From an uncultured virus (IMG/VR IMGVR_UViG_3300024429_000007) (lineage: Duplodnaviria; Heunggongvirae; Uroviricota; Caudoviricetes): a stretch of 20,000 nucleotides of DNA. The DNA is taken from positions 51,288 through 71,287 of the IMG/VR virus record IMGVR_UViG_3300024429_000007; one strand, given 5' to 3'. Under the pieces are notes generated by a model. That model was not told the origin of the DNA and searched no databases. It saw only the letters and a list, made by a program, of their open reading frames with translations. The translations under genes and the position numbers were made by a program. Positions 739-20,000 of the stretch are shown piece by piece (position 1 is the first letter of the stretch; each line of letters begins with the position of its first letter).

Positions 739-779
739 GAAGAGACTCGTAGAAGTTTCGTCTTCCAAAACGTCTCTTC
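739..779 (-). terminator. Stem-loop after the capsid gene (partial terminator or mRNA-stabilising hairpin)
   Basis: GAAGAGAC...GTCTCTTC outer stem with an inner G-U-containing stem on the minus strand, followed by a short TTT and the next RBS. Confidence 0.5.
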
Positions 780-800
780 AGTAAAATTCAGGACCTGCGC

Positions 801-1946
801 TTAGCCGATCTTAACTCCGGTCAGCTTGGCTTGAGGCAGAGGATTCGACAACACGACGGTAACGTCCTCGAAGATGTCGAAACTCGTGTACTGACTCGAA
901 AGCTTGATCTCTTCATACGTCAGCTTCTGGCGCTCACCGACCCACAGAAAATCCCAGTTAAGCGCGAAGAGAGTCGTCGTAGATCCGGTGATGATCGTGG
1001 TCAACAGATTGGTCGTTGCGAGTGACGCGCTGATAGTCACCGTCGTATTCGGCGATGAATAAGAGACAACCGAGATGGTAGCGGCGATGATGCCGTCTGC
1101 CCCGCAATCCATGTTGACCGTGGCCCCAACCTTATAGTCCAGACTCACATCACCGACAATGGTGAACTGAGTCCCGGAGACGTAGGTTGACACCAACCGT
1201 TGCGCGGCGTACCCATCAGCATTGAGACCGATCGTATCCGGGACATTCGAAGAGGTAAAGATCGGAATTTCGAGGTACGAGGGTACCCGGAATCCGCCCT
1301 TCACGTCCATCATGTCCAGGAACATCTGCTGCGGCTGAAGTGCGCTCGACAACTGACGCCGAGCAGCCAACGACATAATCAGCATCTTCGGCTTAAACGG
1401 TGCGCACTTGTCGATGAACTCATCCATCTTGGCGAGAGTGAGTGCCGCCCCGACCGCGGTATTCGCTATCCGAAGAGTCCGAGCGTCGGTGATCAACGTG
1501 TCGATCCCGTCGTACTCGTAATTCTCGTTCGGAGCCGCGAAATGCTTCGCCCAGATCATGCACCACTCTTCCTTGTTCTTGAACTCCAGAATCCTCTGTT
1601 CAATCTCCTCGGTCTTCAGATCAAGCTGATCCTTGGTGGCGAGAACTGCGGTACGCATGATCTCACCGTTGACGCCAATGGTCCGATACGTGAATTCCTG
1701 ATCGGCGTAGGTGCCCTTTCCGCCGGTGGTAAATGTCTTCGTATCGGGGCTGTAGAAGGCAATCTTATTGTCAGTAGCAGGAGTCCTCTGCACGAGAATC
1801 CAGGATTTGCCCGAACCTGTCCGTCTGGGCATGTTCGCGCGAATCGGATTGTCGAATGTTGCCAGGTGTTGGATCACCCTGTCGATCTCTTTTGGAACCA
1901 AGACATCGACATCGCTTAACTTCAACGCTTTCTCGATCTGATCCAT
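801..1946 (-). CDS. Major capsid protein, HK97 fold, with an ~75-aa beta-rich insertion
   Basis: 381 aa after the protease/scaffold; VLVPKEIDRVI, EEWCMIW...EYDGIDTLI, LTLAKMDEFID, MLIMS, YLEIPIFTSSNVP and C-terminal AKLTGV patterns of HK97-fold capsid proteins; starts MDQIEKAL. Confidence 0.9.
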   Translation of the reverse strand: MDQIEKALKLSDVDVLVPKEIDRVIQHLATFDNPIRANMPRRTGSGKSWILVQRTPATDNKIAFYSPDTKTFTTGGKGTYADQEFTYRTIGVNGEIMRTAVLATKDQLDLKTEEIEQRILEFKNKEEWCMIWAKHFAAPNENYEYDGIDTLITDARTLRIANTAVGAALTLAKMDEFIDKCAPFKPKMLIMSLAARRQLSSALQPQQMFLDMMDVKGGFRVPSYLEIPIFTSSNVPDTIGLNADGYAAQRLVSTYVSGTQFTIVGDVSLDYKVGATVNMDCGADGIIAATISVVSYSSPNTTVTISASLATTNLLTTIITGSTTTLFALNWDFLWVGERQKLTYEEIKLSSQYTSFDIFEDVTVVLSNPLPQAKLTGVKIG

Positions 1947-2021
1947 CTCACCAGACTCCTATCGATTGTTGTGAGTTACTTCTGAAAATAACTGACTGAC
2001 GGGGAGAAACGCATATCCGCG

Positions 2022-2903
2022 CTACTTCCCCTCCAACTTCCCAAACAGGAACCCGAGCTTATCCCGAGGCTCCAAGTCCTGATACGCCTTATCCTCGGTG
2101 AAAGGCTTCTTCTCCTGATCTCGCCGCTCCCCTTCTCTCGTCAAACCCTTTCGAATGGGAAGCTTTGACATTACTTGCGAAAGTTTTTCCACTTCCGTCT
2201 TCATTGTGACCACCTGCTCGGCCATCTCAACGAGCCGATCGCTCTCGATCTGGGAGGCGGCGTCCTTAACGCTCTTTTGAACCTCCTGCAGAGTCTCCTC
2301 GATGGCATTGACGACCTCGTCGGTGGACTTTTTCTTCTCCTCCCCCCCTTTCCCCTTCTCCTTCTTCTCTCCCTCTCCCTTCTCAACCGCTTTTGAAAGC
2401 TCCTTCAGCGTATTGAGAACAGCAGTGAGAGGGCCACGATCTGCTTCGGGAAGATCGGCGATTTGCTTCTCCAGGCCTTCTGTCATCCCCGCAGCGATCT
2501 CCCTGGACTTCTGAAGTGCGGCGTCCTTTGCATCCTTTATGGCCTTCTCCGCGGCTATCCTCACAGCGTCCTCTTCCTCTTTCGACTTCTGCTGTGGGGC
2601 AGGATATTTTGTTTCCACAGCTTCGACCAAGGCGATCACGTCGTCAACGAGCTTCTGGGTACCCCCTTCCACTTGGCCACGCAGATTCTTCAGGGCAGTC
2701 AGAACCTTCCCGATCTGACTCTTCAGGTCGTTCTCAACCTCCTCCTCGCCACCGCCCTCGTCTTTCTTGACCTCGACCTCGATCAGATCCATGATCTTCT
2801 CGATATTGCCCCATTGCTCATCCTCTGCCGTGAGCCCAAGCAGATCCCGGATCGCCTCTTTCGCAGGACCTAAGCCGATCTTCTCCAGATCCTTGATTTC
2901 CAT
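2022..2903 (-). CDS. Nested in-frame scaffold protein from an internal start
   Basis: GGAGGAGG 7 nt before an in-frame ATG (MEIKDLEK...) immediately after the protease domain; 293 aa, E/K-rich. Confidence 0.65.
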   Translation of the reverse strand: MEIKDLEKIGLGPAKEAIRDLLGLTAEDEQWGNIEKIMDLIEVEVKKDEGGGEEEVENDLKSQIGKVLTALKNLRGQVEGGTQKLVDDVIALVEAVETKYPAPQQKSKEEEDAVRIAAEKAIKDAKDAALQKSREIAAGMTEGLEKQIADLPEADRGPLTAVLNTLKELSKAVEKGEGEKKEKGKGGEEKKKSTDEVVNAIEETLQEVQKSVKDAASQIESDRLVEMAEQVVTMKTEVEKLSQVMSKLPIRKGLTREGERRDQEKKPFTEDKAYQDLEPRDKLGFLFGKLEGK

Positions 2904-3443
2904 TGGAAGTCCTCCTCCGTTCCTCTTCATTTTCTCGACATAGTAAGACAGGATTTCAGCAGTCTTCAGCGTCGGGACTGAAACTATCGAGACCTCGGCA
3001 CCTTCGTAAGCAATTGCCTCCTCGATAATCCCTCGGCGTTTGTCCTGCGTCGAGCGCGACTCAGCTATCCCCTTGATCGAAAGCTTATTCAGAACCTTCT
3101 CTTTGATCTTCTGCCAGATATCAGGAACAGTCTTCGAAATCAGAATTTTAAGCCATGCACCCCAAATCTCCGGTTCTTTTTGAACCAAGACGACCTTTGC
3201 CTCCTCGATTGCTCCGATCTCTTCATCTTTCAGATGATTATGGAGAACAGTGGTTAAGACGCGAGCATCCCTAACCAAGTCCTCCAAAGCAGGCTTAGTC
3301 ATCCTAAAGTTTTCACTGTCGATTTCATCGGTCGAAGCAAGGGCTTCGACGTACCACTTTCCTTCTTTTTCGTACTCCTTGTAGTGGTCCTTCTGAATCG
3401 GGTCCTTAAACGATAAGTTTTTCTGAATCAGCTTCTTGTCCAC
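2022..3443 (-). CDS. HK97-family prohead protease fused to a coiled-coil scaffold region
   Basis: ASTDEIDSENF, LHNH (His), LSIKG (Ser), EVSIVSVP motifs; acidic helical C-terminal part. Start moved to GTG 3443 because GAGGAGG lies just upstream. Confidence 0.88.
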   Translation of the reverse strand: MDKKLIQKNLSFKDPIQKDHYKEYEKEGKWYVEALASTDEIDSENFRMTKPALEDLVRDARVLTTVLHNHLKDEEIGAIEEAKVVLVQKEPEIWGAWLKILISKTVPDIWQKIKEKVLNKLSIKGIAESRSTQDKRRGIIEEAIAYEGAEVSIVSVPTLKTAEILSYYVEKMKRNGGGLPMEIKDLEKIGLGPAKEAIRDLLGLTAEDEQWGNIEKIMDLIEVEVKKDEGGGEEEVENDLKSQIGKVLTALKNLRGQVEGGTQKLVDDVIALVEAVETKYPAPQQKSKEEEDAVRIAAEKAIKDAKDAALQKSREIAAGMTEGLEKQIADLPEADRGPLTAVLNTLKELSKAVEKGEGEKKEKGKGGEEKKKSTDEVVNAIEETLQEVQKSVKDAASQIESDRLVEMAEQVVTMKTEVEKLSQVMSKLPIRKGLTREGERRDQEKKPFTEDKAYQDLEPRDKLGFLFGKLEGK

Positions 3444-3456
3444 TCTCAAAACCTCC

Positions 3457-6400
3457 TCAAGTCTCACCGCCAGGCTCTGCTGGCGTTCTCTCGACGTACC
3501 AATGATCCTCCGCACGCTTAAAGAGAAACACTCCTTTCAGTTTCTTGCCCTTAAACTGAATCTTTTTCAACTCAGGCTTGTCGATCAGCATAATCGCTTT
3601 CCCAGAACCCAAAAGTCGAATGAACGATGGAGTATCCGTCGTCGGATTCAGGGGAGTCCCGGGCTTGACATAGCCAGTCTTCCGGTACTCTTCATTGCCC
3701 CAATTATCTTCCCGAATCATTCCGCCAGTCTCGTCAGCCTCTAATATATTATCATTCAGCTTAAAAATCAAGTACTTTTCTCCGGTTTTGATCCAGAGCA
3801 AGAATCTTTCACGTGTCGGACCCTCCCGGACAACCTTCGGACCCTTCCAAAACTGATACGTGAATCGAAATTCGGTCACGGCAGCTTTCGAAACTCCGAC
3901 AGACTCGGGTTTGGAATCCTTCTCGGATTTAAGTCGTTCAAGAAAAACTTCAAACTCTTTAGCAGCACCTTTGATCTCTTCACTCGCAAAATACTCCGCC
4001 AGTTGCTCTTTAATGTTCGGATTCCGATTGTCGGCAAATTTTTTCGCTGCCTCGCCGTCTTTGACGAGCTTCACATAATCAACGTCATCGCCTTTTCCGG
4101 ACCACGGATTGGTCTCCTTCCCAAGCCACTTCACAAAGCAAGGCCAGCAGAACCAAGCGTGCCCGTGACCATTTGCCCAGATAATCTCGAGTACCGGCTT
4201 ATGAGAGCATTCCATACACGTGTCATGGCGATGACGAGCTTTCTCGATTGCTTCCCATTCGTCTCTTCTCGACCCGACCCAGAGAACCTCGACCGGCGCT
4301 TCCTTCTCGACAGATTTCCCAAAAGGATCCCGGTCCCCCTTCTGAGCTTTACTCAGGATCCCTTCCTCTTTCCATCTTTTGACCAAAACCTTTCGCATTT
4401 CGAATGCCTTCGGCTTATCCTTCACCGTCCAATACTCTTCTTCCGTCTTAACGTGTTTTCTCCAATGCTTCGGAAGCGCACTAATGGTCGGCGGTGGAAG
4501 GAAACCCTGCTCGATGGCTCGGTTCGAAAGGACGTAAGGAATCTGATCGTCGGGATTGATACAAAGCCACCCGAGCTCTGGACCCAGACCTTCTTCCTTG
4601 CCGGGCGGAATGACGAAAGCTTTCAGAATATCTTCTTCTTTCAGTCCCCTATTCATCGGATCATCGACTGAAACTTCCGATTCCGCGGGCAGACCCATTT
4701 CTTTCATGACCTCAATCAATTGCGGTTCGATCCATTGCCGGATCTCCTCATCGGTCATTCCCTCACCCTTCAAAACTGCAAAAGCCCGGCTGTTCAGATC
4801 CGCTATGTGATTCCACAACACTTCGCTGCCGAGAATCTCCTGTTGATCGGGCTCATCATCAGATTTTTTCGTCTTCCAGGCTCGAAGCTGACGGAAAAAG
4901 AATCGTCCCTTCTTAAGAACCTTCCCATCAAAAAAATATTCGTGGAGCCACGGCTTTTGCGAAAGGTACTCCGCCTTCCCCCGATCGACAATAACAAATA
5001 CCCCGGGAAATTCCTTCGTCGCTCCGAGGACTCCTGGTTTAACGACACCTTCAAATGTCATCCAACTTTTCGGTTCCGGAGATTTGCGAGTCGCAACCAA
5101 TTCGACTCGAACTGTCGTTCCTGGTTTCGTACTTTTCTTCTCTCTCTCCGCCCACTCGCCCGTCTGCAAATTGATTTTGTAGTATTTCGTAGAATCGGCA
5201 TTGATCTTTCTCAAATCGCCCATCGAGAGAATCGGTTCTTTGATCGCACCTTCTCTTTGAATCATTAGGGTCCATCCGACCAAGAACTCCTTTCCCAGGC
5301 TTTGAATTCGCAAATCCGCGTGGACCGATCGCCCTCTCGCGTGAGTGTGCATCATATAACTGTAGTCCCCGCTCTCGTCGGGGTAAACGCTAAAGGGATC
5401 GGCTTTCGCTTTTTCAATCTCTGCTTTTTCTTGTTCCTCTCCCTCCGACTTCCGAACGGAGACCCAGAGGATCTCCGACATTCTTCTTTTGTTCTGCTGT
5501 GCTGATGGTAAGCTGGCTGCGATTGCTCCGGAACCAGTCAGAGCGAAGCGTTTCTGACTGGCCTGGCGCTTCGTTCTTTCAAAAAGCGCTTTCCATTTGA
5601 TCGGACAGGCGGGACTAGTCGAAACAAAGAGATATTTGCAATGCCCGGCCAACTTTTCAGCAAGCGCCTGTACCTGATCCTGGGTAACTTCTTTCTTATC
5701 CCAATCCTTCTGAAGTAGAATCGCATTCAACTTTCCAAACTTTGTGATGTACTTGAACAGTTTTTCCGAGTACGGTGGATCGAAGTAAATCATATCGACC
5801 GAGGGAATCTCCATCGTCAAGGCGTCTAAATTGGTAACTGTCCCCTCGATTTCGAAAGAACGTAGTTGCTTCGCGTAAAATCCGAGCTTGGATTTGAATT
5901 CTGCAAAACTCCATTTTCGATACGGTCCGCCAAACGACCCAAACCAATTCAAGAGGCAGGCAGACAACACTCCAAGATAGTAATGTCCAAACTTCGCCTC
6001 CCTCGCCCGAAGGATATATCCATCTATAAACTTCTGAGCATGCTTCCTACCAGCCAGGATTGGAAAGAGTTTTTTTGCATTTTGAAAATAGTACCCCTCG
6101 ACTTCATTTACAGATTTAAGAAATGCTTTGAACTCTTCTTCGTTCGGCTTATTTTTCAAAAACATCGCCCGGGCGGTATAAAAAGGCGCCGTCGAGTAAT
6201 CGTTTGCAATGATCCTCTTTCCTTGCTTCGCCATCTCCGCTAAAAACAGAGCAGTCCCACACATTGGATCGAAAATTGTTTTGACATCCTCCGGAACCAA
6301 TTTCGCAAATTGATTCTTTAGTCTCCCCTTGCTTCCCAAATAGAATATCTTCTCGATGTCAAGAAAATCGGCCTTCAGCGTTAAGGGGTCAGCTAGATCG

Positions 6401-6510
6401 AAACCTTCGAAGTCGGGAATTGTCCGTGCGAAAACTTCAGTTGGAATGGAGAAGTGAACATTGTCCCCCTCGATTTTCAGAATTTTGGCTCGATATTTGA
6501 CTCTCCCCAT
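3457..6510 (-). CDS. Multidomain protein: D12/Dam-class N6-adenine DNA methyltransferase + LigD phosphoesterase (PE)-like domain + putative Zn module + second degenerate PE-like domain
   Basis: MTase: YLGSK, IFDPMCGT, IANDY, YFDPPY (aa ~55-352). PE-like: HTHARGRSVHADLRI...WMTFEGVVKPGVLGA...VIVDRG...FDGKVLKKG (aa ~381-545). CMEC...WFCWPC. C-terminal GYVKPGTPLNPT...LLGSG...FKGKKLKGVFLF...W. Confidence 0.8.
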   Translation of the reverse strand: MGRVKYRAKILKIEGDNVHFSIPTEVFARTIPDFEGFDLADPLTLKADFLDIEKIFYLGSKGRLKNQFAKLVPEDVKTIFDPMCGTALFLAEMAKQGKRIIANDYSTAPFYTARAMFLKNKPNEEEFKAFLKSVNEVEGYYFQNAKKLFPILAGRKHAQKFIDGYILRAREAKFGHYYLGVLSACLLNWFGSFGGPYRKWSFAEFKSKLGFYAKQLRSFEIEGTVTNLDALTMEIPSVDMIYFDPPYSEKLFKYITKFGKLNAILLQKDWDKKEVTQDQVQALAEKLAGHCKYLFVSTSPACPIKWKALFERTKRQASQKRFALTGSGAIAASLPSAQQNKRRMSEILWVSVRKSEGEEQEKAEIEKAKADPFSVYPDESGDYSYMMHTHARGRSVHADLRIQSLGKEFLVGWTLMIQREGAIKEPILSMGDLRKINADSTKYYKINLQTGEWAEREKKSTKPGTTVRVELVATRKSPEPKSWMTFEGVVKPGVLGATKEFPGVFVIVDRGKAEYLSQKPWLHEYFFDGKVLKKGRFFFRQLRAWKTKKSDDEPDQQEILGSEVLWNHIADLNSRAFAVLKGEGMTDEEIRQWIEPQLIEVMKEMGLPAESEVSVDDPMNRGLKEEDILKAFVIPPGKEEGLGPELGWLCINPDDQIPYVLSNRAIEQGFLPPPTISALPKHWRKHVKTEEEYWTVKDKPKAFEMRKVLVKRWKEEGILSKAQKGDRDPFGKSVEKEAPVEVLWVGSRRDEWEAIEKARHRHDTCMECSHKPVLEIIWANGHGHAWFCWPCFVKWLGKETNPWSGKGDDVDYVKLVKDGEAAKKFADNRNPNIKEQLAEYFASEEIKGAAKEFEVFLERLKSEKDSKPESVGVSKAAVTEFRFTYQFWKGPKVVREGPTRERFLLWIKTGEKYLIFKLNDNILEADETGGMIREDNWGNEEYRKTGYVKPGTPLNPTTDTPSFIRLLGSGKAIMLIDKPELKKIQFKGKKLKGVFLFKRAEDHWYVERTPAEPGGET

Positions 6511-6519
6511 CTCTTCTCC

Positions 6520-7941
6520 TTAACCAGTGGATTCGACCTGCTGAACCACCCTATCGGGAATATCTTTCACAGAAGGATACGATTTCGATCGCGACCGATG
6601 TGTGAAAACGTAGTACCCATCCTCATCTCTGCCGACGCTAACGCCCCGTAATCTTCCACCTTTTCGCGGATACGTACCCTCGCCCTCCTCAAGATCGGAG
6701 ACCTTTTTGTTGGTGAGCTTCGGAAAGGGGTGCTTCATCTTCTCAATGCTAAGTTGCTTATTCATTTTTTCAACATCTATCTCGGGCTCATCGGTGACAA
6801 ACCAGACAAATCGCCCTTTGCGTAGCTCATCCGGCACAGTCTCCATTTTAAGAACACCACTATCGAATTCTGCGCTCCGGCGATAGCCGGGGACCCAGTT
6901 TTTCATTTCTTCGGGGGGCACTCTCCACAACAAATCCATCGCCTTCGTGAAAGCTTTCTCGATTAACAAATTGACAGTCTGACCGATCTTAATTGCAATC
7001 GAAAAATAATCCGGCTCCTTTTTTTCAACCCAAATTTCAACGACTATCGGCTCATATAAATGAAGGCGATTGAAACCTGATTCATCGTCGTGGTACAAAT
7101 TCATAGTATGAAACTTCATCGTCAAAACCGTTCCGATCTGAGCCTTGATGTTGGTATTGTAACTACGTCCGACGTAGACGTATTCCTTGCCTTTGATTTC
7201 CTTCACCCGTTTCGGATCAACCTTATCCGACGGCCGGAATCGCAAATACAATTCGTAATTGAAAGTGTCCGGCCCAACCTTCGTCGAATTTACCTGACCG
7301 ACAAGACAGTGAACTTCGGCGAACTTTTTCTGCTTGAAGACCCCAGAAGTCATGCCTGACATACTATATCCCGAGCTAGCGGTATCGAGAAGTTTGATCA
7401 TCGCGCCTTCTGAACCAGGGGCCTTCAGACACTTCTGGAGGGCAGACTCGGCTTCTTTCAGCGTCTCACAATACAGCGAAGGCGTCAGATTGAGAATCAA
7501 ACTTTCACTTGGTACGCCCATCGTCGATTGCGGAAACGCGAATTTCTCCAAGAATTCCCGGCGCTCTCTCTTCGTGAGCTTATGGATGTCCCGGTCGTAA
7601 TATAGACAGTCAAAGACATTATAGGTAATCGTCTTCCTGGTGATGACTTCCTTTTTATGCAGGAGCGCCGCCATCTCTTCTCTGGGACGATGCTTTCCAC
7701 CAACCCAGTATTCCATTTCTCCAATCAAACAGAAATTCTTAACGCGGTCCCTTATTTTTGGAACCTCGTCGACAAGATCCGGAAGACTGCTCTCAACCCA
7801 CTTGCCGCTGTCCGTAAAGATCTTAACTTTGTCCCCAGAACAAAAAGTCACCAGGACGATCCCATCGTACTTCTTCTCGATCGCTACTTGCGGGATCGCT
7901 CCGGACTTGAGCACAAAATCTTCGTCCTTTTCAAAATTCAT
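6520..7941 (-). CDS. ATP-dependent DNA ligase (adenylation + OB-like domains) with C-terminal accessory extension
   Basis: Motif I EKKYDG, III LIGEM, IIIa YNVFDCLY, IV EGAMIK, V FKQK, then a beta-rich OB-like region; about 145 extra C-terminal residues. RBS GAGGA; ATGA overlap with the upstream gene. Confidence 0.88.
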   Translation of the reverse strand: MNFEKDEDFVLKSGAIPQVAIEKKYDGIVLVTFCSGDKVKIFTDSGKWVESSLPDLVDEVPKIRDRVKNFCLIGEMEYWVGGKHRPREEMAALLHKKEVITRKTITYNVFDCLYYDRDIHKLTKRERREFLEKFAFPQSTMGVPSESLILNLTPSLYCETLKEAESALQKCLKAPGSEGAMIKLLDTASSGYSMSGMTSGVFKQKKFAEVHCLVGQVNSTKVGPDTFNYELYLRFRPSDKVDPKRVKEIKGKEYVYVGRSYNTNIKAQIGTVLTMKFHTMNLYHDDESGFNRLHLYEPIVVEIWVEKKEPDYFSIAIKIGQTVNLLIEKAFTKAMDLLWRVPPEEMKNWVPGYRRSAEFDSGVLKMETVPDELRKGRFVWFVTDEPEIDVEKMNKQLSIEKMKHPFPKLTNKKVSDLEEGEGTYPRKGGRLRGVSVGRDEDGYYVFTHRSRSKSYPSVKDIPDRVVQQVESTG

Positions 7942-17647: not shown

Positions 17648-17715
17648 ACCCCGATCAATACTTCCCGATCCGTCTCCACCGCCACCCCGATCAATACTTC
17701 CCGATCCGTCTCCAC
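17648..17715. repeat. 32-nt direct repeat x2 with 36-nt period (VETDREVLIGV x2 in a small acidic ORF ending at 17638)
   Basis: accccgatcaatacttcccgatccgtctccac at 17648-17679 and 17684-17715. Confidence 0.85.
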
Positions 17716-17973
17716 AGTAACCTCGATCAATTCCTCGGTGTCCGTCGCCAATTCCTTACCACTCCTCCCAATTACCCAGGTCAAGAAGACGATCAGAGGA
17801 TTGAAACCCCACTTCGATTGTAGCCTTAACCACGATCGCCATCCGGCAGTCTCGTCACAGGCCGGTCGCACTCACTGTCTTCGATGAAAATGAAACCTAA
17901 CGGTATTTGATGCCATATATTACCGAGACGCCCCCGACCGCCCTCTTGACCCAAGATCGAAACTCGATGCCGT

Positions 17974-18141
17974 CTAAATTCTGGTCGAAAATGTATGAAT
18001 ATAAGTATCGCTACGAGTGTACGTTATCCGACAATCCTCTTTTCGATCTCTGTGCATTGCTCGGTGACACGCAATTCCCATGTGATGAAATTCCCTTCCG
18101 CAAGTATGACAATAACAATTCTTTGCCGCAATCACCCACAT
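17974..18141 (-). CDS. Small C2H2-like zinc-finger protein
   Basis: GGAGGT RBS before ATG 18141; CHTC...F......H...H spacing; 55 aa. Confidence 0.65.
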   Translation of the reverse strand: MWVIAAKNCYCHTCGREFHHMGIACHRAMHRDRKEDCRITYTRSDTYIHTFSTRI

Positions 18142-18269
18142 AGTACCTCCCGCAATTATCCAAATACAGAAACAGTGTCCCAATGCAGTCAGGGTCGGGG
18201 GAGCGTAAGCTTTCCAGCGGTTTCATCGCAAGCTACGCCTTTTGGCCTCACAACGACCCCAACCGGAAA

Positions 18270-18362
18270 TGAAACGTATTCGAAGCGGTGTGAATGACAG
18301 GGCGAAATCGAAACCCGCCCAGGTACTACGAGTGAAACGTGTCGAAGCGGTGTGAATGACAG
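18270..18362 (-). repeat. Two 30-31-nt direct repeats with a 32-nt spacer (CRISPR-like mini-array candidate)
   Basis: Minus strand CTGTCATTCACACCGCTTCGA(C/AT)ACGTTTCA at 18333-18362 and 18270-18300. Confidence 0.85.
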
Positions 18363-18405
18363 AAACAGTATCTCGCCCCCCCCCCAACCCGTGACCACAG
18401 CCCCT

Positions 18406-18434
18406 AAAATATGCGCACATCACCCCCCTGTCAA
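18406..18434 (-). promoter_or_regulatory. Sigma70-like leftward promoter
   Basis: TTGACA (18429-18434), 17-nt spacer, TATTTT (18406-18411), A-tracts upstream (UP-like). Confidence 0.65.
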
Positions 18435-18737
18435 GTACTTTTTTTCCAAAAAATTATTTCTGCCCCAAAATATACGACGAACGCTATCCGTAAGCCGATG
18501 AATCATAACCTATTATCTCTGTATATTTTTCAATGAAAGTTTTTTGCCGGACATAGGATTTTTTTCTCTAATGCCATCTCCATCTCAAATTGTTTTACAT
18601 TTTCACAAACGCCTGTCTGCCATCCGGTTACGCCATTCCTTCTGTATCTTCCCCTTTCCACTTGTCAGACAATCCTGCTCTAAGTCCATCACACACAACG
18701 GCATAGGCCAAGTGTGTCTTGTCAAGGTGCAAAGCAT

Positions 18738-18813
18738 AAGTTACAAGTTACAAGTTACAAGTTACAAGTTACAAGTTACAAGTATAGGCATAAAGCTTCA
18801 AGCTTCAAGCTTC
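18738..18813. repeat. 7-nt tandem repeats (AAGTTAC)x6 and (AAGCTTC)x3
   Basis: Counted at 18738-18779 and 18793-18813. Confidence 0.95.
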
Positions 18814-18840
18814 AAGTGTCCTTTGCTTTCCTGCCTTGCA

Positions 18841-18938
18841 TCCATCCCCTTGCATCCATCCCCTTGCATCCATCCCCTTGCATCCATCCCCTTGCATCCA
18901 TCCCCTTGCATCCATCCCCTTGCATCCATCCCCTTGCA
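18841..18938. repeat. (TCCATCCCCTTGCA)x7 perfect 14-nt tandem array
   Basis: Seven exact copies plus a preceding partial CCTTGCA. Confidence 0.97.
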
Positions 18939-19198
18939 TATTGCCCGGTGCATTACAGCCAAGTGGTGCAAAGCAGCCGCCGCTTTGGTTCATTTGAGCC
19001 TAATCAGCAAGCATCGGTCGAGGGAGCTTTGGCATACATAAACTTTTATCTTCACCGCCCGCAAGGGCTTAGGGCAGCAGTCCCAGGACTTGGCACGCCA
19101 TTTGCTTATGTGTGAGGTGTAACACAAAAGCAAATACAAGGCTTTCGGGCTTATGTCCGACTGCCAAACATCCCACACAGAGGGGAGGTGACAACACA

Positions 19199-19645
19199 AT
19201 GGAAAGCATCGACAGGAAAAAGGCTGCTGCTTTGGGTTTCTCGATCGAAGAGATAGATCTGATCGAGGAGAAGCGCGAAGCAAAGGCTTTCGAGGGGGCC
19301 AAGAGTGGATTGGAAAACTCCGATGAACTCAAGGCTCTCAAGGCTACGGTAAAGGGCTTCGGGCATGCTGTTCGGATAGTTGTGGAAGTTACCAAGAACA
19401 CCGAGGGAAAACTTCAGAACCCGACAACACGTGTCACGTACCCGAGCAAAGCCAAGTCCGCCACCAGCAATGATAATAGCAATGGTGGGCGTTCAAAGCC
19501 CTGCACCGTCGACGGCGTCGAGTATCAGTCTTGTCAAGAAGCTTGTGACAAGTTTGAATTTCCAACGAAGGATGACTCCGCCAAGCGGGTACTGGATCGG
19601 ATGTTGAAGCAGGGAAAAATCAAAGCCTTTGAGTTGACCGAGTAA
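19199..19645 (+). CDS. Putative DNA-binding protein with a C-terminal NUMOD1-like HTH
   Basis: GGAGGTG RBS 8 nt before ATG 19199; 148 aa; KPCTVDGVEYQSCQEACDKF resembles the K.v.idG..y.S..eA HTH module. Confidence 0.65.
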   Translation: MESIDRKKAAALGFSIEEIDLIEEKREAKAFEGAKSGLENSDELKALKATVKGFGHAVRIVVEVTKNTEGKLQNPTTRVTYPSKAKSATSNDNSNGGRSKPCTVDGVEYQSCQEACDKFEFPTKDDSAKRVLDRMLKQGKIKAFELTE

Positions 19646-19752: not shown

Positions 19753-19950
19753 ATCGGACAAAAGAACATGAACAAGCACACATCGGACAAAAGAACATGA
19801 ACAAGCACACATCGGACAAAAGGACAAAGGACAAGGGGCAAGGGGATGGACTTGGGGATGCACACAAGGAGCAAGGGGATGCACACAAGGGGCAAGGGGA
19901 TGGACTTGGGGATGCACACAAGGGGCAAGGGGATGGACTTGGGGATGCAC
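19753..19950. repeat. 29-nt repeat x2 plus partial, then G-rich 33-nt repeat x3 with one 21-nt shortened copy
   Basis: ATCGGACAAAAGAACATGAACAAGCACAC at 19753 and 19782; ACAAGGGGCAAGGGGATGGACTTGGGGATGCAC at 19831, 19885 and 19918; short variant at 19864-19884. Confidence 0.95.
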
Positions 19951-20000
19951 ACAAGGGGGTTGACAAGGAAGACTTGGGCTTTTTGGACTTTCCAAATTGG

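Follow-up and report, generated by a model that had tools for sequence, protein, structure and literature searches.

Two copies of a structured RNA cassette (S1 and S2) lie on the minus strand of the window, as the analyzed stretch of 20,000 nucleotides of viral DNA is called here, and would be transcribed from a promoter of the host type. Each cassette is enclosed by a long closing stem and contains short segments related to YVTN-type protein repeats encoded elsewhere in the same genome. The homology, the stems, the codon pattern of the segments and a recurrent motif, GTTTCA, can be read directly from the DNA. We tentatively propose that the cassettes give rise to anti-tag decoy RNAs, which would bind type III CRISPR complexes aimed at the 17-copy repeat without activating Cas10.

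Genomic setting

The window, located at the right end of a virus record of 71,287 bases (G000, 58% complete), carries, on its minus strand, genes encoding a terminase, a portal protein, a ligase-like protein and a methylase. A near-identical record (L001/G001; 117,770 bases, 87% complete) gives no comparison, because it represents the same virus (two blocks, 19,134 and 12,111 nt long, show a single difference each). The only dataset found to carry the stretch was a DNA run from a subsurface metagenome (X1); no RNA dataset carrying it was found. A contig of this run covers 17686–18767 without differences. Since X1 may be the source sample of the record, this match does not independently argue against an assembly artefact.

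Several further features of this virus were recorded. Low-depth contigs of run X1 (records 3, 4, and 6) are 86–90% identical over 18379–18684 and 19070–19414, which points to a second related virus in the run; one of them extends into the 5′ arm of the S1 stem. Short tandem repeats with units of 7, 14, 29, and 33 nt are clustered at 18723–18945 and 19753–19971, where they flank a divergent gene encoding 148 amino acids without a Pfam or PHROG match. These clusters possibly mark an origin or a genome-end region. Large head-region proteins, in which an adenine methylase or ATP-dependent ligase domain is fused to other domains, are encoded at 3457–7941 (minus strand). The intergenic segment 11880–12002 (minus strand) gave a weak Rfam match (sot0042, E 0.008, far under the gathering score). 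The gene at G000:C1:14115–15485 (minus strand) encodes a class I tRNA synthetase (E/Q) catalytic domain with an F5/8-type-like insert and adjoins YVTN and glycosyltransferase genes; it is kept in a second virus (L103:1573–2943, minus strand). The helicase of G001 contains an intein with a LAGLIDADG domain.

Relatives of the locus

Relatives were sought with a degenerate ACDETAGK pattern, which yielded 67 metagenome loci. Four of them belong to this virus, two come from relatives with intact YVTN genes of this type (L066 and L103), one carries the motif out of frame (L073), and the rest are chance matches. L073 is syntenic with the window (terminase 78% identical) and is the single independent relative carrying the cassette. 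Its TTGACA-17-TATTTT promoter is directly followed by a homolog of window positions 17965–17750; S1 and the zinc-finger gene described below are missing. Viral scans with the repeat, the terminase, gene A and three motif patterns returned only this virus or unrelated matches, none of 56 genome loci was a relative, and the exact repeat core occurred in one viral record only, which is the same virus. In L073, Rfam gave no match to the cassette and one weak match elsewhere.

L073 differs from the window in other places, too. Its portal gene (748–3159, minus strand) is about 340 amino acids longer, and the extra part appears intein-like by eye. Different tandem repeats (6617–6714) occupy the place corresponding to the clusters of the window.

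A gene encoding a 55-aa zinc-finger-like protein is located between the two cassettes (18141–17974, minus strand). Judged by its seven homologs (50% to 76% identity), it is a real gene of a mobile family. YVTN-like or cassette-like flanks were seen at none of the 38 zinc-finger loci from other records (39 loci in total). At positions that are nearly always R and mostly G in the family, the protein has C and S, respectively; it may be decaying. A YVTN origin of parts of this protein (GIAC, SDT, IHT) was considered and dropped, as the changes are single residues relative to its family.

Promoter and transcript ends

The sigma-70-type promoter upstream of S1 (TTGACA at 18434, 17-nt spacing, TATTTT ending at 18406, minus strand), pointed out in an earlier note on this DNA, was confirmed. 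Its score of 10 out of 12 places it among the two top-scoring of seven promoter-like sites between 16500 and 20000 (shuffled sequences 3.3 ± 1.6), and the same hexamers with the same spacing precede the homologous cassette of L073 (6168–6140). Transcription is predicted from this promoter to start near 18400. The promoter spacer (GVMC) was considered as a further YVTN-derived piece and dropped, since a 2x contig differs at that Cys codon.

Directly behind S2, a 37-aa acidic ORF (17751–17638, minus strand) is conserved in L073 and has no PHROG match. It is followed by a 108-aa gene (17594–17268), 3′ of which a terminator-like hairpin (17280–17255, minus strand) may end the transcript ahead of the packaging genes. 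In L073, a similar hairpin with a T run was recognized by eye, but was not called as a terminator by the scan.

YVTN homology of the cassettes

A 19-nt core of the repeat noted in S1 has copies with three mismatches at three other places of the genome, all within genes built from 42-aa units. A profile search identified 17 YVTN-type units in three genes (A, B, and C). Gene A has homologs named YVTN family beta-propeller proteins, and its Pfam match (YNCE) stayed under the cut-off of that family. Positions 18317–18211 of S1 are 73.6% identical to gene A over 110 nt (E 4.8e-14), and the score of S1 against gene A was reached by none of 200 shuffled sequences. S2 as a whole is not significantly similar to gene A (24 of 200 shuffles reached its score). 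S1 is roughly collinear with consecutive gene A units, and the interior of the cassettes, linkers included, is almost wholly a YVTN patchwork.

In S1, the YVTN-like pieces DTVSVIHTAS, VIHTASNT, GVACDETAGK, and DTVSV are distributed over three different frames with stops between them. Insert F1 (18372–18339, 34 nt, DTVSVIHTAS; mean unpaired probability 0.51) overlaps the proximal copy of the repeat. The segment formerly regarded as a spacer (18332–18301) aligns in its 3′ half to gene A (RDSNSVS codons) and pairs with 18378–18370 (0.83–0.98); its 5′ half shares TACCTGG(G)CG with a linker of L073. The core of insert F2 (18300–18276, (S)VIHTASNT) overlaps the distal repeat copy and matches gene A at 22 of 25 positions, the homology reaching 18317. 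A long hairpin follows (18276–18204), whose 3′ strand is insert F3 (18239–18210, GVACDETAGK; mean unpaired probability 0.24). F3 agrees with gene A at 25 of 30 positions, and all five differences are in third codon positions. Finally, the short piece DTVSV (18179–18163) is situated outside the stem, and a profile match spans 18239–18163 (E 1.2e-5).

The pieces of S2, beyond the zinc-finger-like gene, read VSV..ASNTV, TVSAT, ACDETAG, and MAIVVKATIEVG, a gene start. Insert a (17929–17889, minus strand) comprises 33 nt encoding VSV..ASNTV, 2 nt shorter than in L073, followed by GTTTCATT. TVSAT (17878–17865) has a 14/14 match in a YVTN gene of L066, and ACDETAG (17862–17843) agrees with gene A at 19 of 21 positions. 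Insert c (17842–17800) consists of 35 nt from an ATG, corresponding to the start of a YVTN gene (MAIVVKATIEV(G)), and ends in GTTTCAAT. It is closer to gene a of L103 (31/35) than to gene A of its own genome (28/35).

All inserts are in mRNA sense and have no open frame in common; they read as consensus motifs of the YVTN family beta-propeller genes, whereas the cassettes are not open reading frames. Translation by frameshifting was rejected, because S2 and L073 do not have the same indels. None of the long inserts exactly reproduces any YVTN unit compared. Eight inserts, with boundaries set by eye, were scored against six YVTN genes, and the mismatches to the best unit were distributed over codon positions 1, 2, and 3 as 6, 2, and 25 (221 sites, p 7.5e-7). 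The inserts differ from their best unit by 4.5 mismatches per 30 nt; real units differ from their nearest neighbor by about 6.5. Between S1 and S2, ACDETAG differs at six sites, all of them synonymous third positions. This bias holds although the frames of F1, F2, and F3 differ and S2 and L073 are separated by a 2-nt indel. The ACDETAG match of L073 was built into the search pattern, in which codon positions 1 and 2 of ACDETAGK were fixed; the other insert of L073, which the pattern did not cover, has 2, 0, and 4 mismatches at the three codon positions. Both L073 inserts may extend 3–4 nt beyond the boundaries used.

Closing stems and RNA fold

The closing stem of S1 is formed by 18399–18376 (5′ arm) and 18203–18184 (3′ arm, containing CGACCCT) and has 20 base pairs, four of them G-U, and one bulge (pair probabilities 0.82–1.0). 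The arms of the S2 stem (17955–17931 and 17799–17775) form 25 uninterrupted base pairs, including eight G-U, and the stem of L073 has 20 base pairs. The 65 pairs of the three stems include 17 G-U pairs, and none is mismatched. The stem energies are −36.4 kcal/mol for S1 (−24.2 on the other strand) and −40.5 kcal/mol for S2 (−16.8 on the other strand). Because the opposite strand pairs 11–24 kcal/mol worse, the minus strand is the one that corresponds to the RNA, which agrees with the earlier argument from G-U pairs.

In a scan for such stems, ranks 1–3 among the 4,739 windows of the minus strand were taken by those of S2 and S1. With a coarser step, none of 6,697 windows drawn from the opposite strand and an additional 40 kb went beyond −34.4, compared with −38.6 and −35.4 for the two cassettes. 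In this coarse scan, the L073 stem came sixth of 289. All 23 compared pairs are kept between S2 and L073, with seven one-sided changes and one two-sided change. On these two sequences, the stem is preserved with consistent or compensatory changes, as in a conserved structured non-coding RNA. The S1 stem differs in sequence from both.

The z-scores of the whole RNA folds are modest (−1.68 for S1, −2.88 for S2, and −1.41 for L073). The inserts are only 37–53% unpaired, and two of the anti-tag-like 8-mers described below are mostly paired (unpaired probabilities 0.21 and 0.34). In S2 and L073, pairing of one insert with another is possible, and one-sided changes agree with it; the interior of S1 folds differently. 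Since the V-S and (D)E-T codons are complementary, the inserts may be kept for internal pairing.

The repeat pair of S1

Promoter and adjacent sequence had been interpreted in the earlier note as a two-repeat mini-array followed by a structured RNA with an anti-repeat loop. The layout of its elements is as described: in minus-strand order, a 37-nt lead is followed by a 30-nt repeat (18362–18333), a 32-nt spacer (18332–18301), and a 31-nt repeat (18300–18270), the two copies differing by one indel and one substitution. As text, the loop ATGAAAC is indeed complementary to GTTTCA(T). The statement that the window lacks a cas gene holds as well, none of its 19 ORFs being cas-like.

The nested fold proposed for the 3′ part is the minimum-energy structure only of an isolated 86-nt fragment (z-score −1.97; 10 of 200 shuffled sequences fold equally well). 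In the 251-nt leader it has a probability of 0.00, and so have the helices GGGGUCG/CGACCCU, GCUU/AAGC, and GCG/CGC (looked up by text). The reason is that CGACCCUGACU is engaged in pairing with the RNA's 5′ end (0.82–1.0). The suggested switch, in which either repeat pairs with the loop, fared no better, both pairings having a probability of 0.00 in this leader. The lead, taken for a guide, supplies the closing stem with its 5′ arm. Repeats and scaffold are YVTN-coding look-alikes, and only the last 6–8 bases of the repeat resemble a CRISPR repeat. Rfam, searched as recommended in the note, returned nothing for the locus (E ≤ 5) and seven weak matches elsewhere. The best match of the spacer elsewhere in the genome has 10 mismatches in 32 positions. 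Relatives in which 30-nt repeats stay constant and 32-nt spacers vary were not found, and a repeat pair of this kind is missing from L073. The YVTN origin of the repeats and the "scaffold" and the second cassette (17955–17775) had been missed. What is supported of the earlier reading is a promoter-driven structured RNA of the minus strand. A connection with CRISPR is plausible, though with exchanged roles: the spacer-like part is formed by the "repeats". The original version takes the lead and the 32-nt spacer for guides, the 30-nt copies for CRISPR repeats, and the 3′ fold for a scaffold or switch. It can point to the promoter and the 30 + 32 geometry; against the findings of this paragraph, it is barely credible.

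GTTTCA and anti-tag-like 8-mers

Each cassette contains GTTTCA exactly twice, in every case at the 3′ end of an insert, whereas its frequency in the genome is 0.46 per kb. The cassettes of the window contain four copies in 398 nt, compared with 0.18 expected (P 4e-5). Six of the nine inserts in the three cassettes end in GTTTCA-N-T/A; those without it are GVACDETAGK of S1 and TVSAT and ACDETAG of S2. Among the six inserts ending in the motif, three are about 35 nt long (11 codons plus 2 nt), two have 33–34 nt with small deletions, and one has a 25-nt core. In five of six cases, the junction between insert and motif falls after the second codon base. The motif follows unrelated inserts (..KILVA and ..IEVG). 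The second slot is occupied by ACDETAGKILVA in L073 and by ACDETAG and the gene start in S2, GTTTCA ending both. In S1, GTTTCA is also readable as the V-S codons of NTVSAT, which is found three times in gene A.

The six 8-mers were compared with GTTTCAAT, the complement of the crRNA tag AUUGAAAC. Five agree at seven of eight positions, among them GTTTCACT (18338–18331; mean unpaired probability 0.87) and GTTTCATT (18275–18268; 0.52) of S1, and the one behind insert c of S2 is identical to it (8/8). Thus, a segment followed on its 3′ side by a tag complement, the arrangement of an anti-tag target, is present for six of nine inserts. Tags of the AUUGAAAC type are also common in type III CRISPR. 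As no host, array, or cognate spacer was found, the match rests on a common tag of I-B arrays of unrelated organisms: PMC3479195 reports AUUGAAAC as the tag of I-B crRNAs from two organisms.

On the 5′ side of the inserts, no tag-like 8-mer was detected (four to eight mismatches of eight at the 30 positions tried), the best-matching sites share no PAM or 5′ flank, and no conserved repeat sequence beyond 6–8 nt follows the inserts. The missing 5′ tag and the missing PAM would fit a mimic of the target, but not a guide.

Host, CRISPR, and effector searches

No CRISPR array was found around the 143 motif matches, and no host array or cognate spacer in 5 + 401 + 401 genomes, a weak search. The 401 + 401 genomes, from two phyla, gave low-complexity or ordinary gene matches only (two candidates scored per genome). 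A gene of L103 (116–1132, plus strand) is a viral copy of a heptose-7-phosphate kinase-like gene; because its closest named homolog is only 57% identical, the host cannot be named from it. A Pfam scan of 99 + 19 ORFs gave no effector gene, and RVT_1, PF07282 (Cas12f/TnpB), the Nop domain PF01798, RAMPs, and IS110 PF01548 had no match in either of the two incomplete records.

The element was compared with known RNA families on this basis. A CRISPR mini-array is contradicted by the YVTN-coded 30-nt copies, the lack of relatives with variable spacers, and the lack of a 5′ tag or PAM. Solitary repeat units or Racr RNAs have a nearly complete host repeat, whereas only 6–8 nt are conserved after the inserts. 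The GGY/NN tandem units of VIPR were not seen, and there was no RAMPs match in the two incomplete records. TIGR-Tas and bridge RNAs come with a gene for a Nop-domain or IS110 protein and with 36-nt units or guides on two strands; here, neither domain was matched in the two records and all inserts are on one strand. For a Cas9, IscB, or TnpB type of RNA, no effector was found by the PF07282 search or among the scanned ORFs, and the "scaffold" has a probability of 0.00. A DGR or retron would require a reverse transcriptase, for which there was no match, and the differences are not adenine-specific. The element thus matches no tested family, and the mechanism discussed below is a proposal.

Discussion

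According to the decoy model, each protospacer of about 35 nt with the complement of a crRNA tag at its 3′ side would act as an anti-tag target, which a type III complex binds and cuts with Cas10 staying off. A virus with at least 17 copies of a repeat could not escape by point mutation from mismatch-tolerant type III spacers directed at it. An abundant harmless copy might occupy the complexes and pair with the crRNAs before the YVTN mRNA appears. Because host spacers would stem from many units and from related viruses, the best decoy would be a consensus in which codon positions 1 and 2 are fixed and position 3 is free. The closing stem could protect the RNA or free it through RNase III cleavage, and relatives' YVTN genes or a host array read backwards may have been the source of the inserts. 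Since the decoy would be cleaved by Csm3 and then let go, the effect would depend on abundance. Transcription of the cassettes, a matching host system, binding, and protection are presumed in this model. Put more generally, the cassettes could represent a re-programmable RNA anti-CRISPR mimicking the target, in which consensus, wobble-free repeat copies with the self signal of the host absorb type III (or VI) complexes; this, too, we consider possible rather than probable.

A cis-acting leader is the alternative to be taken most seriously, although we regard it as unlikely. A rearranged YVTN relic would control processing, translation, or terminator read-through by its stem and its V-S/E-T pairings, and GTTTCA would serve internal pairing or protein binding without any relation to CRISPR. 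The position directly behind a conserved promoter and ahead of the terminator-like hairpin 17280–17255 suits such a leader, as do the patchwork interior, the collinearity of S1 with gene A units, and the mutual pairing of the inserts in S2 and L073. However, it gives no reason for the divergence in third positions, the three inserts of about 35 nt, the junction after the second codon base, or the exchange of a gene start in front of a kept GTTTCA, and the interior of S1 does not fold like those of S2 and L073. It appears improbable that the locus is neutral debris, produced by decay of a YVTN gene, local duplications, occasional short gene conversion, and interruption by the zinc-finger gene. 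Frameshifts and stops throughout the cassettes, the absence of S1 and the zinc-finger gene from L073, the atypical C and S of the zinc-finger protein, and the non-significant overall similarity of S2 to gene A would all be explained by decay. It does not account for the two long-range stems that rank best on the minus strand, for wobble pairs being exclusively G-U with no pair broken between the viruses, for the lack of an exact copy among the long inserts, or for motifs that keep their amino acids while the flanks are replaced.

Distinctly unlikely, in our view, are guide RNAs against related viruses or for silencing of the YVTN genes, with sense inserts directing host Cascade or another effector against the template strand and GTTTCA as the stub of the next repeat. 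The 8-nt 5′ tag, which crRNAs keep, is missing, and the 3′ stub is kept although it is trimmed to 2 nt in I-B crRNAs (PMC3479195); in addition, a common PAM, a repeat beyond 8 nt, a GGY/NN pattern, and an effector domain in the two incomplete records are lacking. Very improbable is a template for reverse transcription that diversifies or homogenizes the YVTN repeats in the manner of DGRs or retrons. The inserts have the required sense orientation, and the closing stem around a long hairpin resembles the a1/a2 and msd parts of a retron, but neither record contains RVT_1, the differences are not adenine-specific, and the indels break the frame.

The decoy model has its closest counterpart in the anti-tag target RNA of type III systems. 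Such an RNA of 35 + 8 nt, a protospacer with the 8-nt tag complement at its 3′ end, is cut by Csm3 with Cas10 remaining inactive, in vitro and in cells (10.1101/369744; PMC6755085; review PMC11127173). These papers worked with a synthetic imitation of an antisense transcript of the host, whereas here the anti-tag RNA would be encoded by a virus, with several per RNA. The cassettes also differ from the RNAs described there in having a closing stem and a repeat-family consensus. The anti-crRNAs of Clostridium thermocellum likewise consist of a reverse-complement spacer with flanking pieces of the repeat and can accompany lower crRNA levels, as far as described in PMC3479195. They are made by the host from an intact array and have repeat tags of 15–22 nt, whereas the cassettes are viral with 6–8 repeat-like nucleotides.

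Racr RNA anti-CRISPRs mimic the repeat of the crRNA; they are small, promoter-driven RNAs carried by viruses, and a role in disarming CRISPR in the absence of cas genes has been proposed for them. Compared with these and with solitary repeat units as defined in the available text of 10.1101/2023.03.03.530964, the cassette lacks a complete repeat, and its mimicry would concern the target. It is reminiscent of virus-borne mini-arrays as described in part of PMC6858448 and 10.1101/2023.03.03.530964 in that it is cas-less and promoter-proximal and has inserts of spacer length related to other viruses; unlike mini-arrays, it has no conserved repeat, 5′ tag, or PAM, its inserts belong to one family, and it is enclosed by a long stem. 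Indifference to the third codon base is shared with the VIPR vrRNA (available text of 10.64898/2026.04.26.720920), but GGY/NN units and a RAMP-domain match are missing, and the third base is present and variable. A full-text literature search, with most subscription journals and preprint supplements outside its scope, returned no paper on a virus-made target mimic or anti-tag decoy or on a YVTN-linked non-coding RNA of phages.

Type III immunity tolerates mutations, and the available text of 10.1101/369744 names as ways of escape only deletion of the target and a match to the crRNA tag, both of them rare. If the decoy model is true, tag-matched decoys for a repeat that cannot be deleted would be a third escape route from type III immunity, and the cassettes would represent a class of RNA anti-CRISPR acting on the side of the target. 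Even without a link to CRISPR, the viruses carry a conserved non-coding RNA that keeps the codon phase of protein motifs without an open frame.
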